DNA from: Nostoc sp.
GTDB lineage: Bacteria; Cyanobacteriota; Cyanobacteriia; Cyanobacteriales; Nostocaceae
Length of the DNA stretch: 32,000 nucleotides
Assembly: GCF_036919555.1 (NCBI RefSeq)
Contig: NZ_JBALCS010000100.1
Coordinates: 69,934-101,933 of the forward strand
Reading direction: 5' to 3'
Position 1 is the stretch's first letter, and each line of letters begins with the position of its first letter. Below, one piece after another: positions 1-11,061 of this stretch. The notes under the pieces are model-generated. The model had not been told where the DNA came from. It saw only the letters and a list, made by a program, of their open reading frames with translations, and made no database searches. Made by a program: the position numbers and the translations under genes.

Positions 1-641
1 GGCTGACACACACCTTTGGTTGTGAGTTCTGCGATCGCGCGATCGTTAGCTTCAATATATTCTGGTGGTATCATGTCGCGCCATCGGACTCGCCCTGCTA
101 GCAAATCCTGTTGTGAATAACCTACCATTTCTAAAAAAGCATCATTCGCCTCTGCGATCGCTCCGTCCATTTTGACTACAATTACCCCAATAATGTTGGA
201 ATCTACCAACCTTCTAAACCTGGCCTCACTCACCTGAAGATATTGTTTGGCAGTGCGTAACTCGGAATTGAGCAAGCTAATAAGTATTGTCACTAGCACA
301 AACAAGCCTAACCGCACCATGCTATCTAGACTCGCAACAAACAGCGAAAATACTGGCTCTAAAAAAAAGTAGCTGACGGCTAAAGTAGACAAAGCGGTAG
401 CCAGCAACCCTGCTTCCATGCCGCTATACCAGGCACTAACCGCCACGGCAGCAAAAAACAGCAGAAAAATAGTTGGTTCCAGTAGTGGCTGTAGCAATAG
501 TGTTAGCAGCAATCCGCTACCAACAGCCAATAGTCCCACAGCATAACGCGCTAGCAGGAAACGTGTTCCTTTCAATGTGGCTTCTCCTTTTATGCAGCTA
601 GCTAAAGGATTATTCCCAAAATCAGCTAGATAATGCTGCAT
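1..641 (-). CDS. Sensor protein N-terminus (DUF4118/KdpD-like membrane domain followed by the start of a PAS domain), probably a histidine kinase. The 3' part lies outside the window.
   Basis: Not in the ORF track because it is cut by the window edge. My minus-strand translation from the ATG at 641-639 reads MQHYLADFGNNPLASCIKGEATLKGTRFLLARYAVGLLAVGSGLLLTLLLQPLLEPTIFLLFFAAVAVSAWYSGMEAGLLATALSTLAVSYFFLEPVFSL...RLGLFVLVTILISLLNSELRTAKQYLQVSEARFRRLVDSNIIGVIVVKMDGAIAEANDAFLEMVGYSQQDLLAGRVRWRDMIPPEY. It stays open to position 1. The multi-TM pattern followed by a coiled linker and a PAS-like block is typical of DUF4118-PAS sensor kinases. Confidence 0.7.
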   Translation of the reverse strand, partial: MQHYLADFGNNPLASCIKGEATLKGTRFLLARYAVGLLAVGSGLLLTLLLQPLLEPTIFLLFFAAVAVSAWYSGMEAGLLATALSTLAVSYFFLEPVFSLFVASLDSMVRLGLFVLVTILISLLNSELRTAKQYLQVSEARFRRLVDSNIIGVIVVKMDGAIAEANDAFLEMVGYSQQDLLAGRVRWRDMIPPEYIEANDRAIAELTTKGVCQ

Positions 642-2190: not shown

Positions 2191-2239
2191 CCAATGCCCA
2201 ATGCCCAATGCCCAATGTCCAATGCCCAATGCCCAATAC
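2191..2239. repeat. Heptamer tandem repeat (CCAATGC x7, two degenerate units), STRR-like
   Basis: Direct reading: ccaatgc ccaatgc ccaatgc ccaatgt ccaatgc ccaatgc ccaatac. It sits in the divergent intergenic region between the cyclase and the helicase. It generates the spurious MPNAQCPMSNAQCPIL N-terminal extension seen in the ORF track. Confidence 0.9.
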
Positions 2240-2241
2240 TC

Positions 2242-3864
2242 ATGGTTCGCACCCCCACATTAAATTTTGATCGTGGCACATTAATTTTGCATCCACCACC
2301 ACGCGGCAAAGGTTGGATGGATTATGCTACGTGGGATGATCGAGTTGAAAAATTCCGCATTCCGGCGATTAGATACCGATCGCTAGTGGAAGCACTACAA
2401 GCGGAAGATGTTAATTTTATCGATGAGGCCAAGCAATTTTATCCTGTAGATTTGGTTCCCAGCCTGGAAATGGAACCCTATGCCCACCAGACTGAGGCGC
2501 TAGCGGCTTGGAAACTGGCGGGTAGACTAGGGGTAGTTGTGCTTCCTACGGCGGCGGGAAAGACTTATTTGGCGCAAATGGCGATGCAGTCAACGCCACG
2601 CACGACGCTGATTGTGGTGCCAACTTTGGATTTAATGCATCAGTGGTATGCACACTTAGTAGCGGCTTTCCCTGATGCTGAGGTGGGATTGCTGGGGGGT
2701 GGTTCGCGGGATAGAACGGCTATTTTAGTTGCAACTTATGATAGTGCAGCAATTCACGCCGAAACGTTGGGAAATCAATATGCGTTGATTGTTTTTGATG
2801 AATGTCATCATTTACCGACAGATTTTAATCGGGTGATTGCTGAATATGCGATCGCACCTTATCGGCTGGGACTCTCCGCGACACCGGAACGCACTGATGG
2901 TAAACACGCTGACTTAAATATTCTCATTGGCCAAGAAGTATATCGCAAACGCGCTGAAGATTTGGCGGGAAAGGCGTTAGCAGAACATGAAATTGTTCAA
3001 ATTAAGGTAAAGTTATCGCAACTTGAGCGGGAAAGATACAATCAACTAATTCAAACCCGCAACGACTTTTTGAAGCAATCTAAGATTTCTTTGGGGAGTC
3101 TTCAAGGTTGGCAAATGTTCGTGCAAATGAGTGCTAGATCGCAATCTGGACGTAGAGCTATGTTAGCGCACCGGGAAGCAAAAGATATCGCCTTGGGTAC
3201 TGATGGTAAATTGCGAATTCTGGTTAATTTATTGGCAGAACATTATCCGGCAAGAATTTTGATTTTTACTGCTGATAATGCAACGGTTTACCGCATTTCT
3301 CAAGAGTTACTAATTCCGGCAATTACCCATCAAACTCCTGTAAAGGAACGGCATGAGATATTAACAAAGTTTCGAGAGGGTAAATATAATACTTTGGTTG
3401 CTTCTCATGTGTTGAATGAAGGTGTTGATGTGCCTGCGGCTTCTGTGGCAATTATTTTATCGGGAACGGGTTCGGCTAGGGAGTATACTCAGCGATTGGG
3501 GAGGGTTTTACGGAAGGGGAATATTGAGAATAAGCGGGCGATTTTATATGAGGTGGTGGCGGAGGATACGAGTGAGGAAGGGACTTCGGCGCGGCGGAGA
3601 GGGGAGAGGAGTAACGAACCACGAAGGCGCGTTCACGAAGTGTCTCGAAGAGAAGGACACGAAGGGAAGAAAGAGAATAAAGGGAAGTTAGAGGTTGTGT
3701 ATGGGAGTGGGAAGGAAGGGAGTTTGAAGGCTGCGGAACAGTTAGAGATTAATTATTCAACTGGAAGTTCAAAATCTAAAATTCCAAATTCAGATGTTAC
3801 CGACAGATTTACTGATGCATCGCCAAAACGGGGAGGAGATTATTCCGAAGAGACTGAAGATTGA
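2242..3864 (+). CDS. Superfamily 2 DNA helicase, XPB/Ssl2-like (DEAH type), with a low-complexity basic C-terminal tail
   Basis: Helicase motifs: I LPTAAGKT, Ia VVPTLDLMHQW, II VFDECHHL, III LGLSATPER, V LVASHVLNEGVDVP, VI QRLGRVLR. I placed the start at ATG 2242 (MVRTPTLNFDRGTL) because 2194-2241 is the heptamer repeat. It is followed by a DUF790/Bax1-type gene, the usual XPB partner. Confidence 0.85.
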   Translation: MVRTPTLNFDRGTLILHPPPRGKGWMDYATWDDRVEKFRIPAIRYRSLVEALQAEDVNFIDEAKQFYPVDLVPSLEMEPYAHQTEALAAWKLAGRLGVVVLPTAAGKTYLAQMAMQSTPRTTLIVVPTLDLMHQWYAHLVAAFPDAEVGLLGGGSRDRTAILVATYDSAAIHAETLGNQYALIVFDECHHLPTDFNRVIAEYAIAPYRLGLSATPERTDGKHADLNILIGQEVYRKRAEDLAGKALAEHEIVQIKVKLSQLERERYNQLIQTRNDFLKQSKISLGSLQGWQMFVQMSARSQSGRRAMLAHREAKDIALGTDGKLRILVNLLAEHYPARILIFTADNATVYRISQELLIPAITHQTPVKERHEILTKFREGKYNTLVASHVLNEGVDVPAASVAIILSGTGSAREYTQRLGRVLRKGNIENKRAILYEVVAEDTSEEGTSARRRGERSNEPRRRVHEVSRREGHEGKKENKGKLEVVYGSGKEGSLKAAEQLEINYSTGSSKSKIPNSDVTDRFTDASPKRGGDYSEETED

Positions 3865-5008
3865 TCAGAAAACTTCGGAGTTGGCGATTGAGTTAATTAA
3901 TTATTTTCAATCAGCAGTGGGGAAGACTCAGGGTGTGCTTGAGCGACAACTGACTGATTTTGAAGGAGATTCTACAGATTATCGGGTGAAGCGGGGATTA
4001 GCTTATATTCTCAAAAGCAGTTTTTGCACTTTTGAGGTAGTTAGTCCTTTGGAACCACAAATGTTAAGAGAACGGGTGTTTTCGCTAGCTTCAAAGTCTG
4101 TTTCTAGTCGGGAATCAACACAAGTTACTCTTGGTAAAGTTGCTGATGAGTTAACTCAAGAACTTGAACGGGAAGTTTTATTGGAACAGGTTCGGAATGG
4201 ACTATATGCTGATTTATCTGAAAATAAGATTTTGACTGTGTTTGATGCACCAACAGCACCAGATTTGTTGAATCGATATAATTTATCTCAGGTACAGGGT
4301 GTGTTTTATAAGGCCAGTCAACTGGTGTTAAATGCTCATCGGAATGTTCCGGGTGAATATAAGCTGTTATTCCGCTATTTAAAGTTGTTTCAATTGATGG
4401 CTTATATTGAGGGCGATGCTGACCACGGGTTTACAATTACCATTGATGGGCCGACGAGTTTGTTTAGTTCTAGTACGCGGTATGGGTTAGCGATCGCAAA
4501 ACTTATTCCTGCTTTACTTCACGTTACTAGATGGAGTCTTTCTTCGATTCTCCAAAGCCGCGACGCTTATACAAATACTTGGAAAACTGGACGTTTCACT
4601 CTCAATTCTGAATGTGGTTTGGTATCTCATTATCCACCAGGGAAGCCCTACGATAGTATGCTAGAAGCATCCTTTGCTGATAAGTGGGATGCGTTGAAAA
4701 GTGGTTGGGCGTTAGAGCGAGAAGTTGATTTGATCCCAATTCCCGGTAGCGTGATGATTCCCGATTTTCGCTTGGTGCATTCTGATGGACGCACTTTCTT
4801 ATTAGAAATTGTTGGTTATTGGCGACCTGAATATTTACAAAAAAAGTTTTCTCAGGTGCGGCGGGCTGGACGTGACGACTTGATTTTGGCAATTTCTGAG
4901 CGACTTAATTTAGAAAAGGCGGGAGTAAAATTAAATGATGTCCCCGGAAGAATTGTTTGGTTTAAAGATAAGTTATTGCCGAAAGCTGTGTTAGCTGTGA
5001 TGGATTGA
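3794..5008 (+). CDS. DUF790 / Bax1-type endonuclease (XPB-binding nuclease family)
   Basis: 404-aa ORF. It begins MLPTDLL and has a C-terminal nuclease signature, SVMIPDFRLVHSDGRTFLLEIVGYWRPEYLQKK, which I recognise as DUF790. Its start overlaps the helicase 3' end by 71 nt. Confidence 0.8.
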   Translation: MLPTDLLMHRQNGEEIIPKRLKIDQKTSELAIELINYFQSAVGKTQGVLERQLTDFEGDSTDYRVKRGLAYILKSSFCTFEVVSPLEPQMLRERVFSLASKSVSSRESTQVTLGKVADELTQELEREVLLEQVRNGLYADLSENKILTVFDAPTAPDLLNRYNLSQVQGVFYKASQLVLNAHRNVPGEYKLLFRYLKLFQLMAYIEGDADHGFTITIDGPTSLFSSSTRYGLAIAKLIPALLHVTRWSLSSILQSRDAYTNTWKTGRFTLNSECGLVSHYPPGKPYDSMLEASFADKWDALKSGWALEREVDLIPIPGSVMIPDFRLVHSDGRTFLLEIVGYWRPEYLQKKFSQVRRAGRDDLILAISERLNLEKAGVKLNDVPGRIVWFKDKLLPKAVLAVMD

Positions 5009-5023
5009 TTAAGGAGAAATGAG

Positions 5024-5266
5024 ATGAAAAGTATAGAAACAATTGCCACGGTTACAAAAGATGGTAAGATTACAGCGCAATTACCATTGGATATTCCAGA
5101 GGGTGAACATCAGGTGGTAATAGTAATTGATGAAAAGCCTTTGGCAGAGAAAGCAGAGAGCAAGGAACAACGCCCTCCTCTAAACTTCCCTGTAGATAAT
5201 TATGGTTATTGGCCTGAAAATCTTTCTCTAAGACGTGAGGATATGTATGGTGATTGGGGTCGCTAA
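5024..5266 (+). CDS. Putative type II antitoxin (VapB-like partner of the downstream PIN toxin)
   Basis: 80-aa ORF with a good RBS (aaggagaaatgag before the ATG). It starts 15 nt after the Bax1 stop and overlaps the PIN gene start. Small size and an acidic C-terminus are typical for antitoxins. I cannot assign the fold family by eye. Confidence 0.6.
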   Translation: MKSIETIATVTKDGKITAQLPLDIPEGEHQVVIVIDEKPLAEKAESKEQRPPLNFPVDNYGYWPENLSLRREDMYGDWGR

Positions 5267-5699
5267 CTCTGTATTTCTGGACACGAACATTTTAGTGTAT
5301 GCAAATGTGTCCGAATCTCCCTTTCACCAAGCAGCACTACAGGCTATTGAAAATCTTTATGACGCAGGAATTGAATTATGGATTAGTCGCCAGGTGTTGC
5401 GGGAATTCTTAATGACTCTTAGTCGTCCACAAGCATTGATGAATCCCCGACCTGTTGCGCTCATAATTGAGCGTACCCGATTTTTTCAAGCTCAATTTCG
5501 AGTAGCTGATGAAACCGCCCAAGTGACAGAAAGACTTTTATCTCTAATGGAGCAAATTACTATTGGTGGTAAGCAAGTTCATGATGCAAATATTGTTGCC
5601 ACGATGCTAGTTTATGGCATTCCTCAGTTACTCACTCACAACATAGGTGATTTTGTAAGATTTTCTGGGTTAATTACTGTCTTGCCATTACAAGGTTAA
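5247..5699 (+). CDS. vapC: PIN-domain ribonuclease toxin, VapC family
   Basis: PIN signature: N-terminal VFLDTNILVY acidic motif and, later, VHDANIVATML. About 150 aa. It overlaps the upstream small ORF by 20 nt. Alternative starts are GTG 5235 and GTG 5250. Confidence 0.8.
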   Translation: MVIGVANSVFLDTNILVYANVSESPFHQAALQAIENLYDAGIELWISRQVLREFLMTLSRPQALMNPRPVALIIERTRFFQAQFRVADETAQVTERLLSLMEQITIGGKQVHDANIVATMLVYGIPQLLTHNIGDFVRFSGLITVLPLQG

Positions 5700-5810
5700 C
5701 GCCGTGTGCGACTTTATCTCAAACCTAACCCCCAACCCCTTCCCTACTAGCGTTGGGGAGCAAGAATCAAAGCCTCTCGACCTTTCGGGGAGAGGAATGG
5801 AAGCGGGGTT
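5699..5810 (-). mobile_element. Truncated copy of a small MITE-like dispersed repeat (same family as 26118-26276, opposite orientation)
   Basis: acgccgtgtgcgactttatctcaaacctaacccccaacccc...ggggagcaag..aaagcctctcgacc...ggggagaggaatggaagcggggtt aligns with the reverse complement of 26118-26276, with internal indels. The distal terminal inverted repeat is missing. The element begins at the last base of the vapC stop codon. Confidence 0.75.
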
Positions 5811-5840
5811 CCAATTTCGGTAATTGTACAATTCCACTGG

Positions 5841-6533
5841 CTAACCCCAAACGTTTCTGCGTTCCCAATATTGGACAACTCTTTTTTCCCACTGTTCCCA
5901 GTAATCTTTGATGACTGCTGATTCAAACCAAAATACCTCTGCTGGCATTTCTGGAATCGCTACTACCAAAAGAGCGTGCTTTAACTGAATACCATAATCT
6001 CGATAATACTCGTTAGCGGCTCCTATGTATGCCGTAAGTTGCAGTGGATGTTCATATAAATGCTCAATTGAGCCTTTGGGTTTGTCTGCTGTTTTCCACT
6101 CACAAATACAAGGAATACCTTGATAGCTGGCTATACAATCAACTTTGCCAGAATAACTCAAATCATGATGAAAAACAGAGCCTTCCACGAGTCTAACTGT
6201 GTCGATTTGTTGTAAAACTGGCTGGATACTCTCCCAATAAGGGCGACTCGCTTCGGGACAAACAGGGTTTTGTCCAAGGAGGTAGCGCTCAATTTGTTTG
6301 TGTGTTTGGGTTCCCCGACGGCTAGCAGTTGTAGTAATGCGGGTAGCTTCTTCTGTACCAACACGCGCTTTCCAGTTTAATAATCTGTCTCTGTCTGCTT
6401 GTGATTTGGTGGTATTAAGTATTGTAGTAACGCTAGGGAAGCGATTTCCGTTGGCATCTACATAATATTGTTTACCATTTTCTCTCTTGGCTGTGGCATT
6501 AATGCTTGGTAGCAGTTGGGTATCAAATTGCAT
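5841..6533 (-). CDS. PD-(D/E)XK nuclease, RecB-family or Cas4-like exonuclease fold without an obvious Fe-S cysteine cluster
   Basis: 230-aa ORF. It has FPSVTTIL and RGTQTHKQIERYL N-terminal motifs, a catalytic-type GKVDCIA...CICEWKT block (D-x12-E-x-K), and a downstream QLTAY (QxxxY) motif typical of RecB-like nucleases. Confidence 0.75.
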   Translation of the reverse strand: MQFDTQLLPSINATAKRENGKQYYVDANGNRFPSVTTILNTTKSQADRDRLLNWKARVGTEEATRITTTASRRGTQTHKQIERYLLGQNPVCPEASRPYWESIQPVLQQIDTVRLVEGSVFHHDLSYSGKVDCIASYQGIPCICEWKTADKPKGSIEHLYEHPLQLTAYIGAANEYYRDYGIQLKHALLVVAIPEMPAEVFWFESAVIKDYWEQWEKRVVQYWERRNVWG

Positions 6534-6626
6534 CAGTTGGTGTGTTGACTTTAATGTGTGTGATATATTTCCGAAATAGACAGAGCTACATTTGTATCTC
6601 CAAGTGCAATTAACTATTTTATAATT

Positions 6627-7088
6627 ATGGAACTTGTAACACTGACGGCGGCTGGAATCGCAACTCTTATTTTCTCAGAAGCCCTCAAAGAAGGAGGAAA
6701 AACTTTAGGAAAAGGTGTTTCAGAAAAAGTTGCTCAACTCTTGAATGCTATTCGTGAAAAGTTCCAGGCTGCGGGAACTGAAGGACTACTGACACGAGCG
6801 CAAGAAAATCCTATAGAGAAGAATACCTCAAAGTTCCAAGATGAACTGGAAACACAGATGGAAGAAGATGAAGCCTTTGCCAACCGTTTACAGGAATTAA
6901 TGACGCAGCTTAAATCAAACGAAACGATTAATCAAATTGTTCTCAAGGGAGTTCAGGTAAAAGGTAAGGCTAAAGTAGGCGATATAGATTTGGCAGCCAC
7001 GAGAGACGGTTCAGTGAATCAAGAAGCGGTGGTTGATTCTCAATTTGGCGACGATCTTGACGTTGGTGATGTGAACATAAAAGCCTAA
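6627..7088 (+). CDS. Small helical protein with a hydrophobic N-terminal helix and a duplicated C-terminal Q..VGD motif. Candidate Bell/HeLo-like membrane-targeting effector paired with the downstream NLR.
   Basis: 153-aa ORF ending 4 nt before the NB-ARC gene start. N-terminus MELVTLTAAGIATLIFSEAL is hydrophobic and rich in small residues. The middle is charged and helical. The C-terminus carries NQIVLKGVQVKGKAKVGDIDL and NQEAVVDSQFGDDLDVGDVNIK. Confidence that it is coding is high. The functional call is an inference. Confidence 0.6.
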   Translation: MELVTLTAAGIATLIFSEALKEGGKTLGKGVSEKVAQLLNAIREKFQAAGTEGLLTRAQENPIEKNTSKFQDELETQMEEDEAFANRLQELMTQLKSNETINQIVLKGVQVKGKAKVGDIDLAATRDGSVNQEAVVDSQFGDDLDVGDVNIKA

Positions 7089-7092
7089 AATC

Positions 7093-9540
7093 ATGAACGA
7101 TCGCCCTAACTCTGAGAAAATACAGCAGAGTGCGTTTGAAAATGTTCAAGCCCGCGATATCACAGTTGGGAGCTTTACCCAGAATGAAAACCAGGGGAAA
7201 ACTCCCAAGGCAAAAGGTATTCCGCAAAATCTTCCCCTGAGTGGGGTGTTAAAGTTTGTTGGACGTGAAGCCGAACTGCAAACCCTTCACCAGATGTTGC
7301 AGGAAGATAATCAGGTGGCCATTGCAGCGATCGCTGGCATGGGTGGACTGGGTAAAACAGAATTGGCCTTACAATATGCAAAGGCTCACCGTGAAACTTA
7401 CAAGGGTGGAATTTGCTGGTTACTGGCAAGGGCTGGAGATCTGGGCATTCAAGTTGTACAGTTTGCCAGAACGCAGCTTGACTTAAACCCGCCAGAGAAT
7501 TTAACAGAAGATTCTAACCAAAAATTACTCGCGCAAGTCCAATATTGCTTTCGGCATTGGCGTGAGGGTGATGTGCTGCTAGTGTTGGATGATGTCAGTG
7601 ATTACGAGCAAGTCAAGCCTTATCTACCATCGCCATCTTCCCGATTTAAAGTGCTGATGACTACACGTCAGTACTTTGGAGGCATAGCAAAATTATCTTT
7701 GGATGTGCTGCAACCAGAAGCGGCGCTGGAGTTATTAAAGTCTTTACTCAAAGATACACCGGGGCGAATTGAAAAAGAATTAGCTGTAGCAAATCAATTG
7801 TGTGAGTGGCTGGGATATTTGCCCTTGGGTTTGGAATTAGTGGGGCGATATCTAGCGCGGAAACGGGATTTGTCTGTAACAGAAATGTTGCGGCGATTGA
7901 AAGAAAAACGACTAGATGAGCGTTCCCTCTCTAAGTCCAAGTCAGAAGGTAACATGACAGGACAACGGGGTGTGTTAGCAGCTTTTGAGTTAAGTTGGCA
8001 GGAATTAGAGGATGATGACAAGCAGCTTGGTTGTTTGCTGAGTTTATTTGCCGCCGCACCTATATCTTGGAAATTGGTGGAACACTGTTTACCAGATGAA
8101 GACGAGGAAGAGTTAGAAGAAATTAGAGATGATAAGTTGTTGAATTTGCATTTACTTCAGCGCAAAGATGAGGGAGTTTATCAACTACATCCACTGCTAA
8201 GGGAGTTTTTTCAATATAAGCTTATAGATTTACAGCAAGCAGAGGAATTAAAGCGATCGCTTTGCCAAGTAATGGTAGTAGTAGCAAAAGATATTCCTCA
8301 GACACCCACATTGAGAGATATTGCTCAAGCAACTCTTGCCATCCCTCATCTTGCAGAAGCTGCCACAGTTTACCAAGCTTGGTTAAGCGATGATGATTTA
8401 ATCTGTCCTTTTATAGGCTTGGGTAGATTTTACGAAGGTCAAGGAGCTTACACCCAAGCATTACCGTGGCGTGAACAATGTTTATCAGCTGCTAGAAAAC
8501 GTTTTGGGGATGAACACCCTTCTGTGGCAATTAGCCTAAACGATTTGGCAGGACTCTACGATTCACAAGGAAAGTACAGCGAAGCCGAACCTTTGTACAT
8601 CCAAGCTTTGTCCATATATAAACGCCTGCTGGGGGATGAACATCCAGATGTGGCAATTAGCCTGAACAATTTGGCAGAACTCTACCGTTTACAGGGAAGG
8701 TACAACGAAGCTGAACCTTTGTACATCCAAGCTTTATCCATGAGAAAACGCTTGCTGGGGGATGAACATCCAGATGTGGCACAAAGCGTAAACAATTTGG
8801 CAGGATTCTACGTTTTACAGGGAAGGTACAGCGATGCCGAACCTTTGTACATCGAAGCTTTGTCCATGAATAAACGCCTGCTGGAGAATGAACACCCAGA
8901 TGTGGCACAAAGCCTGAACAATTTGGCAGAACTCTACCGTTTACAGGGAAGGTACAACGAAGCCGAACCTTTGTACAAGGAAGCTTTTTCAATGAGAAAA
9001 CGCTTGCTGGGTGATGAACACCCAGATGTGGCACAAAGCCTGAACAGTTTGGCATTACTCTACCACTCACATGCAAGGTACAGCGATGCCGAACCTTTGT
9101 ACAAGGAAGCTTTGTCCATCAGAAAACGCCTGCTGGGCGATGAACACCCAGATGTAGCAATTAGCCTGAACAATTTGGCAGAACTCTACCGTTTACAGGG
9201 AAGGTACAACGAAGCCGAACCTTTGTACAAGGAAGCTTTGTCCATGAGAAAACGCTTGCTGGGCGATGAACACCCAGATGTGGCACAAAGCCTGAACAAT
9301 TTGGCATTACTCTACCACTCACATGCAAGGTACAGCGATGCCGAACCTTTGTACAAGGAAGCTTTGTCCATCAGAAAACGCCTGCTTGGAGATGAACACC
9401 CAGATGTGGCACAAAACCTGAACAATTTGGCAGCATGCTACTATTCACAGGAAAGGTACAGCGATGCCGAACCTTTGTTCATCCAAGCTTTATCCATGAG
9501 AAAACGCCTGCTGGGGGATGAACACCCAGATGTGGCATAA
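7093..9540 (+). CDS. STAND/NLR-like NTPase: short N-terminal motif region + NB-ARC domain + TPR (kinesin-light-chain type, 42-aa) array. The reading frame is stopped by an in-frame TAA inside the TPR array.
   Basis: NB-ARC motifs: P-loop GMGGLGKTELA, Walker B LLVLDDV, MTTR, and a GLPL-like LGYLPLGLEL. These are followed by repeats of xSLNNLAxLYxxQGRYxxAEPLYxxALSxRKRLLGDEHPDVA. Only about 55 aa precede the NTPase domain, so there is no fused effector domain. Confidence 0.9.
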   Translation: MNDRPNSEKIQQSAFENVQARDITVGSFTQNENQGKTPKAKGIPQNLPLSGVLKFVGREAELQTLHQMLQEDNQVAIAAIAGMGGLGKTELALQYAKAHRETYKGGICWLLARAGDLGIQVVQFARTQLDLNPPENLTEDSNQKLLAQVQYCFRHWREGDVLLVLDDVSDYEQVKPYLPSPSSRFKVLMTTRQYFGGIAKLSLDVLQPEAALELLKSLLKDTPGRIEKELAVANQLCEWLGYLPLGLELVGRYLARKRDLSVTEMLRRLKEKRLDERSLSKSKSEGNMTGQRGVLAAFELSWQELEDDDKQLGCLLSLFAAAPISWKLVEHCLPDEDEEELEEIRDDKLLNLHLLQRKDEGVYQLHPLLREFFQYKLIDLQQAEELKRSLCQVMVVVAKDIPQTPTLRDIAQATLAIPHLAEAATVYQAWLSDDDLICPFIGLGRFYEGQGAYTQALPWREQCLSAARKRFGDEHPSVAISLNDLAGLYDSQGKYSEAEPLYIQALSIYKRLLGDEHPDVAISLNNLAELYRLQGRYNEAEPLYIQALSMRKRLLGDEHPDVAQSVNNLAGFYVLQGRYSDAEPLYIEALSMNKRLLENEHPDVAQSLNNLAELYRLQGRYNEAEPLYKEAFSMRKRLLGDEHPDVAQSLNSLALLYHSHARYSDAEPLYKEALSIRKRLLGDEHPDVAISLNNLAELYRLQGRYNEAEPLYKEALSMRKRLLGDEHPDVAQSLNNLALLYHSHARYSDAEPLYKEALSIRKRLLGDEHPDVAQNLNNLAACYYSQERYSDAEPLFIQALSMRKRLLGDEHPDVA

Positions 9541-9789
9541 AACCTGAACAATTTGGCAGCATTCTACTATTCACAGGGAAGGTACAGCGATGCCGAACCT
9601 TTGTTCATCGAAGCTTTATCCATGAGAAAACGCTTGCTGGGGAATGAACACCCAGATGTGGCAATTAGCCTGAACAATTTGGCAAAACTCTACCATTTAC
9701 AGGGAAGCTATAGCAAAGCCGAACCTTTGTTCATCCAGGCTTTGGATATTTGTGAGCAACAGTTAGGGGTTGATCATCCCCTAACTGTT
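8530..9789 (+). repeat. Tandem array of ten 126-bp (42-codon) TPR-encoding units with high nucleotide identity
   Basis: Unit boundaries read directly at 8530, 8656, 8782, 8908, 9034, 9160, 9286, 9412, 9538 and 9664. Units 4+5 (8908-9159) and 6+7 (9160-9411) differ at about 10 of 252 positions. Confidence 0.9.
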
Positions 9790-9846
9790 AGTGTGCATGA
9801 AAATTTAGCAGATTTGCGCGATCGCCTCTCCTCAAATCAAGAATAG
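9541..9846 (+). pseudogene. In-frame 3' continuation of the NB-ARC/TPR gene (two more TPR units and a C-terminal cap), separated by the single TAA at 9538-9540
   Basis: Same frame as 7093 (both coordinates are 1 mod 3). The translation NLNNLAAFYYSQGRYSDAEPLFIEALSMRKRLLGNEHPDVAISLNNLAKLYHLQGSYSKAEPLFIQALDICEQQLGVDHPLTVSVHENLADLRDRLSSNQE continues the repeat register exactly. The ORF-track start at 9553 is a TTG inside a repeat unit. Confidence 0.8.
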
Positions 9847-10241
9847 GCAAGTTTTGTGCAAAGCGTACCATGTTAAAAGTTAGATTTGCGATCGCCTGAA
9901 TTCAACCGTTCGTTTTCTGAATTCGGCCCTTCGTTTTCTAAGACTGATCCCTCTCCTAAAACTGATTAAACTACATTCAGAGCGATCGCTTCTCGGCAAA
10001 TCTGAACTCGGCGGTTAAAGAACTCCATAACTGGGGCGACTTTTACGTAATGCTTTGGCTAACCACCAAAAAGGTGATCGCCCATCTACCAGGAAAAACG
10101 ATCGCATGAGTGGAACCTTATCTCAATCGTTAATTTCATGCTAAATTTGAGCTAAAATTATTCGGTAATTGCAGGTAATTTCAGGAGATTTACGATAATA
10201 ATATCACCGTAAATCACGGCGGCAAAACTATGCTTCCAATT

Positions 10242-10266
10242 AAAAAACCGCCAAATGGCGGCTTTT
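10242..10266 (-). terminator. Rho-independent-type terminator hairpin downstream of tRNA-Val
   Basis: aaaaaaccgccaaatggcggctttt. The stem is ccgcc/ggcgg (10248-10252 / 10257-10261) with a 4-nt loop. On the minus strand it is followed by a T-run. A T-run on the plus strand too makes it look bidirectional. Confidence 0.6.
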
Positions 10267-10271
10267 CGTAA

Positions 10272-10344
10272 TGGGCAGTACCAGACTCGAACTGATGACG
10301 TCCTGCTTGTAAGGCAGGCGCTCTACCAACTGAGCTAACCGCCC
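10272..10344 (-). tRNA. tRNA-Val (anticodon UAC)
   Basis: The minus-strand sequence gggcggttagctcagttggtagagcgcctgccttacaagcaggacgtcatcagttcgagtctggtactgccca folds as a cloverleaf. It has a 7-bp acceptor stem, D arm gctc/gagc, anticodon stem cctgc/gcagg with loop cTTACaa, and a T arm with a ttcgagt loop. It is 73 nt and CCA is not encoded. Confidence 0.92.
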
Positions 10345-10479
10345 AATCCTTAACTACTATAGCAAAATATTTCGCGTTGCGCTAGTAGTTTTGGGAAAAT
10401 CTTTTTTTCTCTTATACTGACTCAATATTCAGTTACTCAACACGGGCTAAACGCCCCGCTATCGCTAACAGGATTTAGG

Positions 10480-11061
10480 ATGCCCTCTGGTCGGACGCAC
10501 GATCGCATTACAATGTATGCTCTGCCGTTCGTGGCGGGCGTTACTTTCTGGCAGACTCGCAGTAGCAATGCGACTTTGTTGGTTGCAGGCGGATTTCTAT
10601 TTGGAGGGCTGATGTTTGGCCCCGATTTGGATATTTACTCTGTGCAATTTCAACGCTGGGGTTTGTTGCGCTGGATTTGGCTACCTTATCAAAAAAGTCT
10701 CCGTCATCGTTCTTTTTTATCCCACGGGCCGATTATTGGCACGATCCTCCGGGTACTTTATCTCGGCTGTTTACTCGCTATCTTGGCAATTTTCGTGATC
10801 ACGATCGCCGAAAGGTTATGGAATCTGAGTTTTACTTGGCAGGATTTGGGTAGAACTGTGGGGCGATCGCTCGTGGATTACGATACTGAATATATTGCTC
10901 TGTTTTTGGGGTTGGAACTCGGTGCGATGAGTCATTCTCTCAGCGATTGGGGGGGTTCGGCATACAAGCGCTTTCAAAAACAAGGGGTTAGGGGGTTGCT
11001 TCCTAGTGGCAAAATTAAGAAGCGGAAAGTGAGGAGTGGTCGGGCGAGATTGAAGAAATAA
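10480..11061 (+). CDS. DUF2227-family membrane-associated metal-binding protein
   Basis: 193-aa ORF. The N-terminal SGRTHD motif, GPDLDI, a SHGPIIGT block and hydrophobic segments match what I recall of the DUF2227 / COG2389 family. It has a basic C-terminal tail. Confidence 0.6.
   Translation: MPSGRTHDRITMYALPFVAGVTFWQTRSSNATLLVAGGFLFGGLMFGPDLDIYSVQFQRWGLLRWIWLPYQKSLRHRSFLSHGPIIGTILRVLYLGCLLAILAIFVITIAERLWNLSFTWQDLGRTVGRSLVDYDTEYIALFLGLELGAMSHSLSDWGGSAYKRFQKQGVRGLLPSGKIKKRKVRSGRARLKK

Follow-up and report, generated by a model that had tools for sequence, protein, structure and literature searches.

Organization of the Locus

The window, which is the whole 32,000-nucleotide stretch of Nostoc sp. 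DNA that was analysed, contains an effector gene and an NLR-type gene on the same strand, with the ATG of the NLR gene located 4 nt past the stop codon of the effector gene (Table 1). The effector features an N-terminal Bell domain and a tail with two pseudo-repeats, r1 and r2, that are separated by a short linker. The NLR-type protein features a related motif, r0, close to its N-terminus, followed by a NB-ARC NTPase domain and a TPR array. The core of r0 as determined by a hidden Markov model (HMM) spans aa 12–33 of the NLR, QSAFENVQARDITVGSFTQNEN. The assignment of the second gene as NLR-type is based on Pfam matches to NB-ARC (E = 5e-18) and TPR_12 (E = 5e-142). The TPR array has a 126-nt period with 9.8 copies and 87% matches according to Tandem Repeats Finder, and it is presumed to be the ligand-sensing domain.

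Dyrka et al. (2020) reported that 57% of collinear Bell/NLR pairs are no more than 10 bp apart. A promoter and terminator scan of positions 6400–10500 gave a site count that is not above that of shuffled sequences, and no site was located between the effector and NLR genes. A reading of the conserved junction as translational coupling or as an RNA element was rejected because the motif relation is at the protein level and survives in loci where the two genes are separated by intergenic gaps of 90–440 nt.

Table 1. Coordinates of the features of the effector/NLR gene pair, numbered from the first letter of the window.
Feature	Position	Strand	Evidence
Effector gene, 153-aa Bell-domain/BASS4 protein	6627..7088	+	ORF
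Bell domain, all-helical, effector aa 1–96	6627..6914	+	AlphaFold2 model, aa 1–98 profile search
r1 pseudo-repeat, effector aa 102–122, NQIVLKGVQVKGKAKVGDIDL	6930..6992	+	
r1–r2 linker, effector aa 123–130, AATRDGSV	6993..7016	+	Alignments; family consensus ATRDGSV
r2 pseudo-repeat, effector aa 131–152, NQEAVVDSQFGDDLDVGDVNIK	7017..7082	+	
NLR-type gene (NB-ARC + TPR), 815 codons to in-frame TAA	7093..9540	+	ORF, Pfam
r0 motif, NLR aa 11–34, QQSAFENVQARDITVGSFTQNENQ	7123..7194	+	Profile-profile match to r2 and r1
NB-ARC NTPase domain, NLR aa 59–281	7267..7935	+	Pfam PF00931, E = 5.2e-18
Walker A GMGGLGKT, NLR aa 82–89	7336..7359	+	
TPR array, 42-aa units	8506..9744	+	Tandem Repeats Finder; TPR_12 and TPR_10 matches
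In-frame TAA inside a TPR unit	9538..9540	+	Sister repeats read Q there (DVAQxLNNLA)

The N-Terminal Bell Domain

The effector has 155 cyanobacterial homologues, of which the best is 95% identical and comes from Nostoc sp. Its closest relatives are found in Nostoc, Nodularia, Anabaena, Scytonema, Brasilonema, Tolypothrix, and similar genera, and, judged by these genera, the host is of the filamentous or multicellular kind that is characteristic of Bell/BASS pairs. The AlphaFold2 model of the effector features helices at aa 2–16, 18–23, 29–49, 52–60, 64–80, and 82–96, with a pLDDT of 84–92 across aa 31–90. The N-terminal helix (aa 2–16, MELVTLTAAGIATLIF) is hydrophobic and includes the acidic residue E2, which is at least 90% conserved among the homologues. 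A Bell domain is a helical domain of ~100 residues that begins with a hydrophobic helix and has an acidic second or third residue, in a small protein of about 120–150 aa; the effector, at 153 aa, shows these features. Additionally, a profile made from aa 1–98 retrieved 737 representative proteins, some of which have BASS8- or BASS5-type tails. Examples are P0152 (E = 1e-25), which has a BASS8-type tail ending in ...TIGRDQININEIHGDSTRIGG, and P0264 (E = 5.6e-11), which has a BASS5-type tail ending in ...KLADKIGINIQGG. The helical domain is identified as a Bell domain because its profile finds relatives with these tails, and it is homologous to Bell proteins that bear other BASS tails.

The effector has no match to a Pfam or PADLOC family and no match to the sequences of solved structures in the PDB. 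In PADLOC-DB 2.0, which catalogues antiphage defence systems, the NLR matches only a generic TPR model and, weakly, mad8 (E = 0.008). A Foldseek search of the PDB with the AlphaFold2 model of the Bell domain returned nothing significant (best E = 0.88), and a HeLo/MLKL/Rx-like or Bab-like fold is therefore without support; the coiled-coil domain of potato Rx was considered as a fold match, and its E-value of 3.5 made it unusable. A pore or membrane function of the effector is likewise without structural support, because the PDB contains neither a structure match nor a sequence match.

The Motif Shared by the Effector Tail and the NLR

The initial annotation of this DNA described, by eye, a short motif that is present twice in the effector tail and once at the NLR N-terminus. 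Its limits for r2 (aa 131–152) and r0 (aa 11–34) agree with the present analysis, and r1, which had been placed at aa 103–122, starts one residue earlier at aa 102. The proposed [DK]-h-x-V-G-[DS]-h core is found in all three copies, the spacing between the preceding Gln and this core is x(2-3) and not x(3-5), and the hydrophobic residue that was thought to precede the Gln in every copy is a Ser in r2. When all six frames of the window are translated (63,996 residues), the core is found in r0, r1, and r2 and nowhere else, a count that is not an unbiased test because the pattern was fitted to these three sites. Smith-Waterman alignments with BLOSUM62 and 5000 shuffles gave p = 0.16 for the effector tail against the NLR N-terminus. 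Taken separately, r2 and r1 gave p = 0.048 and p = 0.67 against the NLR N-terminus, and r1 against r2 gave p = 0.013. The window pair alone is not significant, and therefore the claim of a shared motif rests on family-level tests.

The motif is conserved in homologous gene pairs. All three copies are present in 47 of 47 cyanobacterial pairs that have a complete Bell-type tail, where r1 and r2 were read from the tail alignment and r0 was located by a seed HMM; this r0 count is partly circular because the seed model was built from 12 of the 47 partners. An HMM built from r2 alone matches 43 of 48 partner sequences, a set that includes the later excluded locus L017, and its best match is at the r0 position in most of them. 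An r1-only HMM likewise has its best match there in the majority of partners, and the E-values of the individual Bell-side matches to the partners are mostly weak. In the reverse direction, the r0 HMM was run on six-frame translations totalling 231,740 aa; most of its top non-self matches are Bell r2 segments, and r2 is its best target outside r0 itself. Profile-profile alignment with hhalign gave a score of 29.3 for r0–r2 (probability 95.7%, z = 13.0), 23.0 for r0–r1 (probability 91.4%, z = 9.4), and 29.1 for r1–r2 (z = 12.3). The null distribution from column-shuffled profiles has a score of ~7 ± 1.7, and 0 of 150 shuffles scored as high as observed. The resemblance is thus no better than shuffled controls in the window's own pair, whereas the family profiles lie far above them (z = 9.4–13.0). 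At the family level, the two proteins share a motif of the length expected for Bell/BASS pairs (~20–25 aa). The relation of r0, r1, and r2 is weak in one pair and decisive in the family.

Co-variation within pairs, which the initial annotation had suggested as a check, is slight between r0 and r2 and absent between r0 and r1. The mean r0–r2 BLOSUM score is 30.8 for cognate and 27.8 for non-cognate combinations (p < 1e-4 in a permutation test that ignores phylogeny), and no r0–r1 cognate co-variation was found in the homologous pairs (p = 0.69). The alignments used for these scores were trimmed, and inserted residues were lost in some clades.

Near-identical Bell tails adjoin several different r0 variants, an observation that was counted against the amyloid-cassette explanation.

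Assignment to the BASS4 Class

Homologous cyanobacterial pairs have been catalogued as 'bass_04', a class with cya_02 and nlr_13 as member motifs (Dyrka et al. 2020, bioRxiv 10.1101/2020.01.06.895854, Table S2). The Bell-side pattern of this class is Q-x-h-h-x-x-h-x-h-x(2-3)-h-x-h-G-[ND]-h-x-Q and the NLR-side pattern is Q-x-I-[FL]-E-N-V-x-A-x-G-N-I-T-V-G-[ND]-I-T-Q. The window r1 is identical at 25 of 27 positions to the Bell-side motif of OYD94771.1 (residues 96–122), which belongs to the Nostoc pair OYD94771.1/OYD94772.1 in Table S2. The window r2 resembles the motif of BAU63955.1 (EAVTDSKIGEDLTMGDVNM), and r0 fits catalogued NLR-side strings such as QKIFENVQAEGNITVGDITQ. Two of the loci compared here, OYE01065.1/6 (L015) and BAZ20404.1/5 (L030), are themselves listed as bass_04 in Table S2. 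String comparison, together with the HMMs made in the present analysis, places the window pair in the BASS4 class.

BASS4 pairs and the window pair have the same protein family, motif, and gene order with a tiny gap, and the partner is an adjacent NB-ARC/TPR gene on the same strand, which agrees with the collinear NB-ARC or NACHT gene with TPR or WD repeats that is expected in Bell/BASS pairs. The window differs from Table S2 in its r0 variant, ARDITVGSFTQNEN, which is absent from the table, and in the premature stop of its NLR. Table S2 gives one Bell-side match per pair, so that r1 and r2 are not both marked; a repeat of the motif on the Bell side was noted for BASS4 in PMC8086366. The gene pair belongs to the known BASS4 family, and it is a rediscovery and not a new system because the family was already published in 2020 as BASS4. 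The literature on bass_04 describes homologous pairs with the arrangement of amyloid motifs in an effector tail and an NLR (HET-s r1/r2 versus NWD2 r0) that had been proposed from the window, and the three-way motif relation is reproduced at the family level. No amyloid or cross-seeding experiment on BASS4 was found in the literature, and a search for later BASS4 experiments gave only the 2021 grammar paper.

Proposed Signalling Model and Alternative Explanations

The locus is probably a BASS4-class cassette for amyloid signalling, made up of one Bell gene and one NLR gene in a Nostoc-like filamentous cyanobacterium, a judgement that includes the mechanism. For BASS4 we infer fibril formation, cross-seeding, membrane attack, and a biological trigger from the analogous HET-S/NWD2, BASS1/BASS3, and Bab/Agp systems. 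The NB-ARC/TPR protein would be the sensor, with a TPR array that would bind a cue, possibly one derived from phage or from another non-self source. Oligomerization driven by the NB-ARC domain would gather several r0 segments, which could then form a cross-beta (beta-solenoid-like) fold. This fold would template the r1-linker-r2 tail of the effector, and each effector molecule would contribute two stacked rungs, one from each pseudo-repeat, in the manner of HET-s. Refolding of the tail would free the hydrophobic N-terminal helix of the Bell domain, which would attack the membrane so that the cell is killed or arrested. In this strain the cassette may be weakened, because the NLR ends early at an in-frame stop and r0 is changed at three of its hydrophobic positions.

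An unlikely alternative, compatible with the amyloid-cassette explanation for the family as a whole, is that the cassette in this strain is a decaying remnant of an ancestral BASS4 that no longer signals here. The TPR frame continues past the in-frame TAA to position 9846, and positions 9553–9846 score against TPR_12 with E = 3e-29; however, because the array is repetitive, a sequencing error could explain the TAA, and an NLR that is cut at this point still has about eight TPR units in addition to r0 and NB-ARC. The window r0 has SFTQNEN in place of the SITQIVN or SITQIIN of its orthologues, and the changes relative to L002, L003, and L005 (ATT>TTT, ATT>AAT, and GTA>GAA) are non-synonymous transversions at three hydrophobic positions. 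The r0 seed model nevertheless gives this r0 a score of 38.8 bits, which is inside the orthologue range of 31.8–44.0, and L028 likewise has Q-N at the same place. Clear decay is also seen in related loci, where the partner ORF is as short as 168 aa in L002 and 398 aa in L007 and where L017 is a Bell-TPR fusion, but the Bell gene in the window is intact.

It is quite improbable that the shared motif is a non-amyloid docking element, in which r0 and r1/r2 would form a soluble heterocomplex of beta-strand or beta-solenoid type that acts as a stoichiometric tether with no self-propagating polymerization. The AlphaFold2 model, with a pLDDT of only 57–72 in the tail, has r1 strands at aa 104, 107, 110–111, 115–117, and 120–123 and r2 strands at aa 133, 136, 139–140, 144–146, and 149–152, each exactly 29 residues beyond its r1 counterpart. 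Such a two-rung beta unit within a monomer would suit a docking element, as would the low cognate specificity and the fact that amyloid experiments on BASS4 were not found in the literature. The matching strand patterns of r1 and r2 were equally counted in favour of the amyloid cassette, as indirect support. In the window's clade 5 of the 21 residues of r1 are also lysines, an unusual content for an amyloid core; however, the composition of the motif (Pro 0%, Q 11%, N 9%, G 8%, V 9%, and I 9.5%) and its G/N turns are typical of amyloid signalling motifs. The composition of r0, r1, and r2 agrees with the published BASS bias, and the three copies have a common register of hydrophobic and G/N/D residues. 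The docking explanation is further opposed by the interchangeable BASS tails that the same Bell domain bears, by the proven prion formation of BASS1 and BASS3, and by the one-plus-two copy layout, which mirrors HET-s/NWD2. A chance resemblance between low-complexity Q/N/G/V-rich segments with no functional link would fit the p = 0.16 of the window pair, but it is extremely improbable and is refuted at the family level by the HMM and profile-profile tests (z of 9–13), in which the Bell-side and r0 HMMs find one another within 231,740 aa; the motif also keeps its positions throughout the 47 pairs and survives the 90–440-nt gaps.

The several r0 variants that adjoin near-identical Bell tails are also a basis for a more tentative reading. 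Several genomes contain two or three BASS4 pairs, for example those of Nostoc CCY 9925, Tolypothrix VB511288, and Brasilonema angustatum, and the r0 copies in multi-pair genomes do not discriminate among the paralogous Bell tails. Additionally, a regex check detected no Walker A motif in 11 of the 47 r0-bearing partners, which therefore do not look like NLRs. Among them are ~880-aa proteins that match HEAT repeats weakly and end in hydrophobic C-termini, proteins that combine TPR repeats with hydrophobic (putative transmembrane) segments, and a ~170-aa protein after which come a transmembrane protein and a convergent gene, the product of which resembles Hsp70/actin by eye. BASS4 could perhaps be a shared 'wiring standard' as opposed to a set of private pairwise codes, which is a tentative idea; if it is true, one executioner could integrate several sensor types, including non-NLR sensors, through cross-seeding.

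Comparison with Known Systems

Fungal, animal, and bacterial immunity are linked by amyloid templating as the signal that passes from an NLR to a cell-death effector. This general picture is unchanged, because the window adds one more cyanobacterial member to a class that has been in the catalogue since 2020. The fungal example of HRAM amyloid signalling is HET-S/HET-s with NWD2 from Podospora anserina, and the beta-solenoid of HET-s(218-289) is described by PDB 2KJ3 (cited in PMC8086366). As in the window, the genes are adjacent, the effector has a helical N-terminus with a hydrophobic helix 1 and a tail with r1 and r2 joined by a loop, r0 is at the NLR N-terminus, and the proposed working principle is the same. 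In contrast to the fungal system, the window pair has a shorter linker (8 aa), a bacterial host, a Bell domain in place of HeLo, and a NB-ARC/TPR in place of a NACHT/WD architecture. Neither a HeLo nor a HET-s_218-289 profile matches the window pair in Pfam at E ≤ 0.1, and the relation to HET-s/HRAM is an analogy of layout alone with no sequence membership.

Bab/Agp (BASS11) from E. coli is an antiphage abortive infection system for which an amyloid signal leading to cell death has been shown (bioRxiv 10.1101/2024.11.07.622273). Like the window pair, it consists of a small Bell-related helical protein and an adjacent sensor, with the motif at the C-terminus of the former and the N-terminus of the latter. 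It differs in its BASS11 motif, in its TPR-GreA/B-C-PIN sensor without an NLR, and in the size of Bab (109 aa), for which no pseudo-repeat is described. The fold and sequence searches of the PDB gave no Bab-like match for the window effector.

None of the three copies contains the RHIM-type [IV]-Q-[IV]-G core, and the pair has no RHIM match in Pfam. The window pair is nevertheless like BASS3, RHIM, and fungal PP systems in that a short amyloid motif is common to the Bell tail and the NLR N-terminus. Prion behaviour, conversion of the Bell side by the NLR side, and fibrils have been demonstrated for BASS1 and BASS3. Beside these systems, the window pair has a clean r1/r2/r0 layout and could serve as a test case for BASS4, a predicted class in the literature found, or for cross-talk among paralogous pairs within a filament.

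Gene pair and genomic surroundings

The effector gene is closely followed by a second ORF whose predicted product is an NLR-type STAND protein, because it combines an NB-ARC domain, a Walker A motif and a TPR array. The small effector matched no family in Pfam or PADLOC searches. The pair sits in ordinary chromosomal surroundings. The upstream neighbours could form a defence- or repair-flavoured neighbourhood, in which the PIN-domain protein is preceded by a small overlapping ORF, possibly as a toxin-antitoxin pair. A promoter and terminator scan gave no signal above shuffled sequences, and none between the effector and NLR genes.

Features of the gene pair and its neighbours
Feature	Residues	Nucleotides	Strand	Basis or remark
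Upstream neighbours		2194-6533		XPB-type helicase with DUF790 protein; PIN-domain protein; divergent PD-(D/E)XK nuclease
Effector ORF	153 aa	6627-7088	+	ORF call
r1	effector 102-122	6930-6992	+	sequence
r2	effector 131-152	7017-7082	+	sequence
NLR ORF	815 codons	7093-9540	+	ORF call; 4 nt past effector ORF
r0	NLR 11-34	7123-7194	+	sequence
NB-ARC	NLR 59-281		+	E=5e-18
Walker A GMGGLGKT	NLR 82-89		+	sequence
TPR array of NLR, long				TPR_12, E=5e-142
TPR tandem array		8506-9744	+	126-nt (42-aa) units, 9.8 copies, 87% matches
In-frame TAA in TPR unit of NLR		9538-9540	+	sister TPR units read Q (DVAQxLNNLA)
Downstream neighbours				DUF2227, MazG, proA-like ORF (the last named by eye)

The motif copies and their conservation

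The initial annotation described by eye a motif that occurs twice in the effector tail (r1 and r2) and once at the NLR N-terminus (r0). All three peptides are present, with the start of r1 one residue off, and the proposed pattern fits approximately, the gap after Q being 2-3 residues instead of 3-5. In the six-frame translation of the window (63,996 residues), the core [DK]-h-x-V-G-[DS]-h is confined to r1, r2 and r0, the three sites to which it had been fitted. Local alignment of the effector tail with the first 50 NLR residues scored 25 against 20.8 ± 3.9 for shuffles (p=0.16); the corresponding values were p=0.048 for r2 and p=0.67 for r1 against the NLR N-terminus, and p=0.013 for r1 against r2. 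A likeness no better than shuffled controls had been named as grounds for dropping the idea, and this is what the single pair gives because p=0.16, but related sequences reverse the result.

The small protein has 155 homologues, of which the named ones are cyanobacterial and the best is 95% identical and from Nostoc sp., and a genome scan yielded 56 related loci. A complete tail is present in 47 loci, the window included; r1 and r2 both align in every one of these tails, and an r0 copy with the consensus Q-s-I-F-E-N-V-Q-A-g-G-N-I-T-v-G-d-I-T-Q-I opens the next gene in these loci, a count that is partly circular since the r0 seed model was drawn from 12 of the 47. In most partners, the top match of HMMs built only from the Bell-side r2 or r1 fell on the r0 position; the r2 model matched 43 of the 48 partner sequences scanned, among them that of a locus excluded afterwards (L017), with mostly weak per-match E-values. 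Conversely, Bell r2 segments made up most top non-self matches of the r0 HMM in 231,740 aa of six-frame translation from the loci and the window. Profile-profile comparison gave probabilities of 95.7% for r0-r2, 91.4% for r0-r1 and 95.7% for r1-r2, with scores of 29.3, 23.0 and 29.1; column-shuffled controls scored ~7 ± 1.7, and none of 150 attained the observed scores. The three profiles have a common hydrophobic register and common G/N/D turn positions, and proline is absent from the pooled motif, in which Q, N, G, V and I are abundant. Orthologous and paralogous pairs alike have kept the motif across the 47 loci, and at the level of sequence the resemblance among r1, r2 and r0 is confirmed as real.

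Assignment to the Bell/BASS4 family

The Bell domain was defined by Dyrka et al. 2020 (bioRxiv 10.1101/2020.01.06.895854) as a helical domain of ~100 aa whose first helix is hydrophobic and which has an acidic residue at position 2 or 3, found in ~120-140-aa proteins of filamentous bacteria. The same study described ten families of bacterial amyloid signalling sequences, BASS1-10, common to Bell C-termini and the adjoining NLR N-termini, and its Table S2 lists OYD94771.1/OYD94772.1 from a Nostoc cyanobiont as 'bass_04'. The Bell-side string of OYD94771.1, KSNETINQIVLKGVEVKGKAKVGDINL, is identical to the window r1 at 25 of 27 positions. Two further 'bass_04' entries, OYE01065.1/OYE01066.1 and BAZ20404.1/BAZ20405.1, correspond by motif strings, species and contig to loci of the genome scan (L015 and L030, respectively). 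The reading of two effector repeats and one NLR copy was therefore both correct and already published, as Table S2 lists such homologous pairs.

The AlphaFold2 model of the effector (mean pLDDT 74.7, pTM 0.69) has a helical part, aa 2-96, in which aa 31-90 reach pLDDT 84-92, and E2 and the hydrophobic stretch after it are conserved. PDB structure and sequence searches with the effector returned nothing significant. A search with the aa 1-98 profile gave 737 representative proteins (E<=1e-3), and in the best 150 of them this N-terminal domain is combined with tails of several kinds: BASS4-type ones, one of BASS8 type (P0152, E=1e-25, ...TIGRDQININEIHGDSTRIGG, cf. the bass_08 entries), one of BASS5 type (P0264, E=5.6e-11, ...KLADKIGINIQGG) and a few with a BASS7-like terminal F-N-F, the last by loose regex match only; many further tails fit none of the motif patterns used. 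Interchangeable tails on one domain are the hallmark of Bell/BASS proteins. We assign the window pair with high confidence to the published BASS4 Bell/NLR family; it is thus already known. By eye, Bell-like domains also appear fused to a TIR-like N-terminal domain (P0179) or an alpha/beta-hydrolase-like domain (P0203), or with long repeat-rich C-terminal extensions (P0139, P0140).

Pair specificity and state of the window copy

Co-variation within pairs, suggested as a check, is weak for r0-r2 (mean BLOSUM 30.8 cognate vs 27.8 non-cognate) and absent for r0-r1. Near-identical Bell tails adjoin at least four r0 variants: ARDITVGSITQ, ARDIKIGVFNQ, VAGNMKVGNINL and VGGNLTTGNITQ. Of the genomes with several BASS4 pairs, some show clear paralogue discrimination (L022/L047) and others show none (L005/L011, L018/L019 and the three Brasilonema pairs). 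Upstream of r0, the NLRs of L018, L019, L030 and L052 feature a further Q/N/G-rich segment, NIQQQAENSTLSGGMQAIQGDNNIQLQGNS (partner aa 1-41), possibly an amyloid-like motif of a second, different kind.

The NLR ORF ends at the TAA, and TPR sequence continues in frame beyond it for ~100 codons (9541-9846); the stop reflects either a nonsense mutation or an error of sequencing within the repeat array. NLR sensor domains often have repeats with such strong internal conservation. The partner ORFs of close orthologues are 168 to 1215 aa long. Compared with the closest orthologues (L002, L003 and L005), the window r0 differs by three non-synonymous A/T transversions at hydrophobic positions, clustered in its second half at 7165-7185 (ATT>TTT, ATT>AAT and GTA>GAA), which change I, I and V to F, N and E, so that it reads SFTQNEN vs S/R-ITQI-V/I-N; its score on the r0 model is still inside the orthologue range. 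At L001 this N-terminus comes with another r0 variant, VAGNMKVGNINL, which has a 3-nt insertion. Decay is frequent in related loci, the partner ORF being only 168 aa in L002 and 398 aa in L007. At L017 (4001-4436) the N-terminal half of a Bell gene runs in frame into the C-terminal end of a TPR protein, which suggests a decayed locus that lost the BASS tail, r0 and NB-ARC by deletion. The window copy may itself be weakened.

Partners other than NLRs

At five loci (L013, L034, L036, L040 and L048; ~4460-8320 per locus) the gene after Bell/BASS4 encodes a ~170-aa protein that is not an NLR and has r0 at its N-terminus; a Pfam search with the L013 protein, the one of the five searched, gave no family. 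Closer inspection of two loci, L013 and L036, shows that the following gene overlaps and encodes ~425 aa with hydrophobic segments, ahead of a convergent ~652-aa protein that is Hsp70/actin-like by eye. These loci may represent a non-NLR BASS4 system. Other r0-bearing partners that are not classical NLRs occur in L044, L047, L050 and L053, in L014 and L020, and in L037. Some are ~870-940 aa long and lack a Walker A motif by regex, and the one scanned (L047) has weak HEAT-repeat matches; the L044 and L047 partners have a hydrophobic stretch at the C-terminal end. In others r0 is followed by hydrophobic, putative transmembrane segments and TPR-like sequence, confirmed as Pfam TPR only for L020, and one combines a NACHT match below threshold (24.4 bits, cutoff 26.7) with a C-terminal half that has hydrophobic stretches. 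The remaining value of the analysis lies in these r0-type motifs at the head of non-NLR partners and in BASS4 itself, which in the papers found has been predicted only.

Proposed mechanism

A cue would be sensed by the TPR array, and NB-ARC oligomerisation would cluster the r0 segments into a cross-beta nucleus that templates the effector r1-linker-r2 region; templating would in turn activate the Bell domain for membrane attack. The AlphaFold2 model places strands at 104/107/110-111/115-117/120-123 in r1 and 133/136/139-140/144-146/149-152 in r2. These patterns are identical and offset by exactly 29 residues, as a two-rung solenoid would give, at a pLDDT there of only 57-72. A literature search found no experimental tests of these steps for BASS4. 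We hold an amyloid-signalling mechanism for the pair with moderate confidence, by analogy with HET-S/NWD2, with the E. coli Bab/Agp BASS11 antiphage system and with experiments on BASS1 and BASS3. The latter two motifs show prion behaviour in Podospora and form fibrils, BASS1 gives cross-beta diffraction as well, and in both families the NLR-side motif converts the Bell-side motif.
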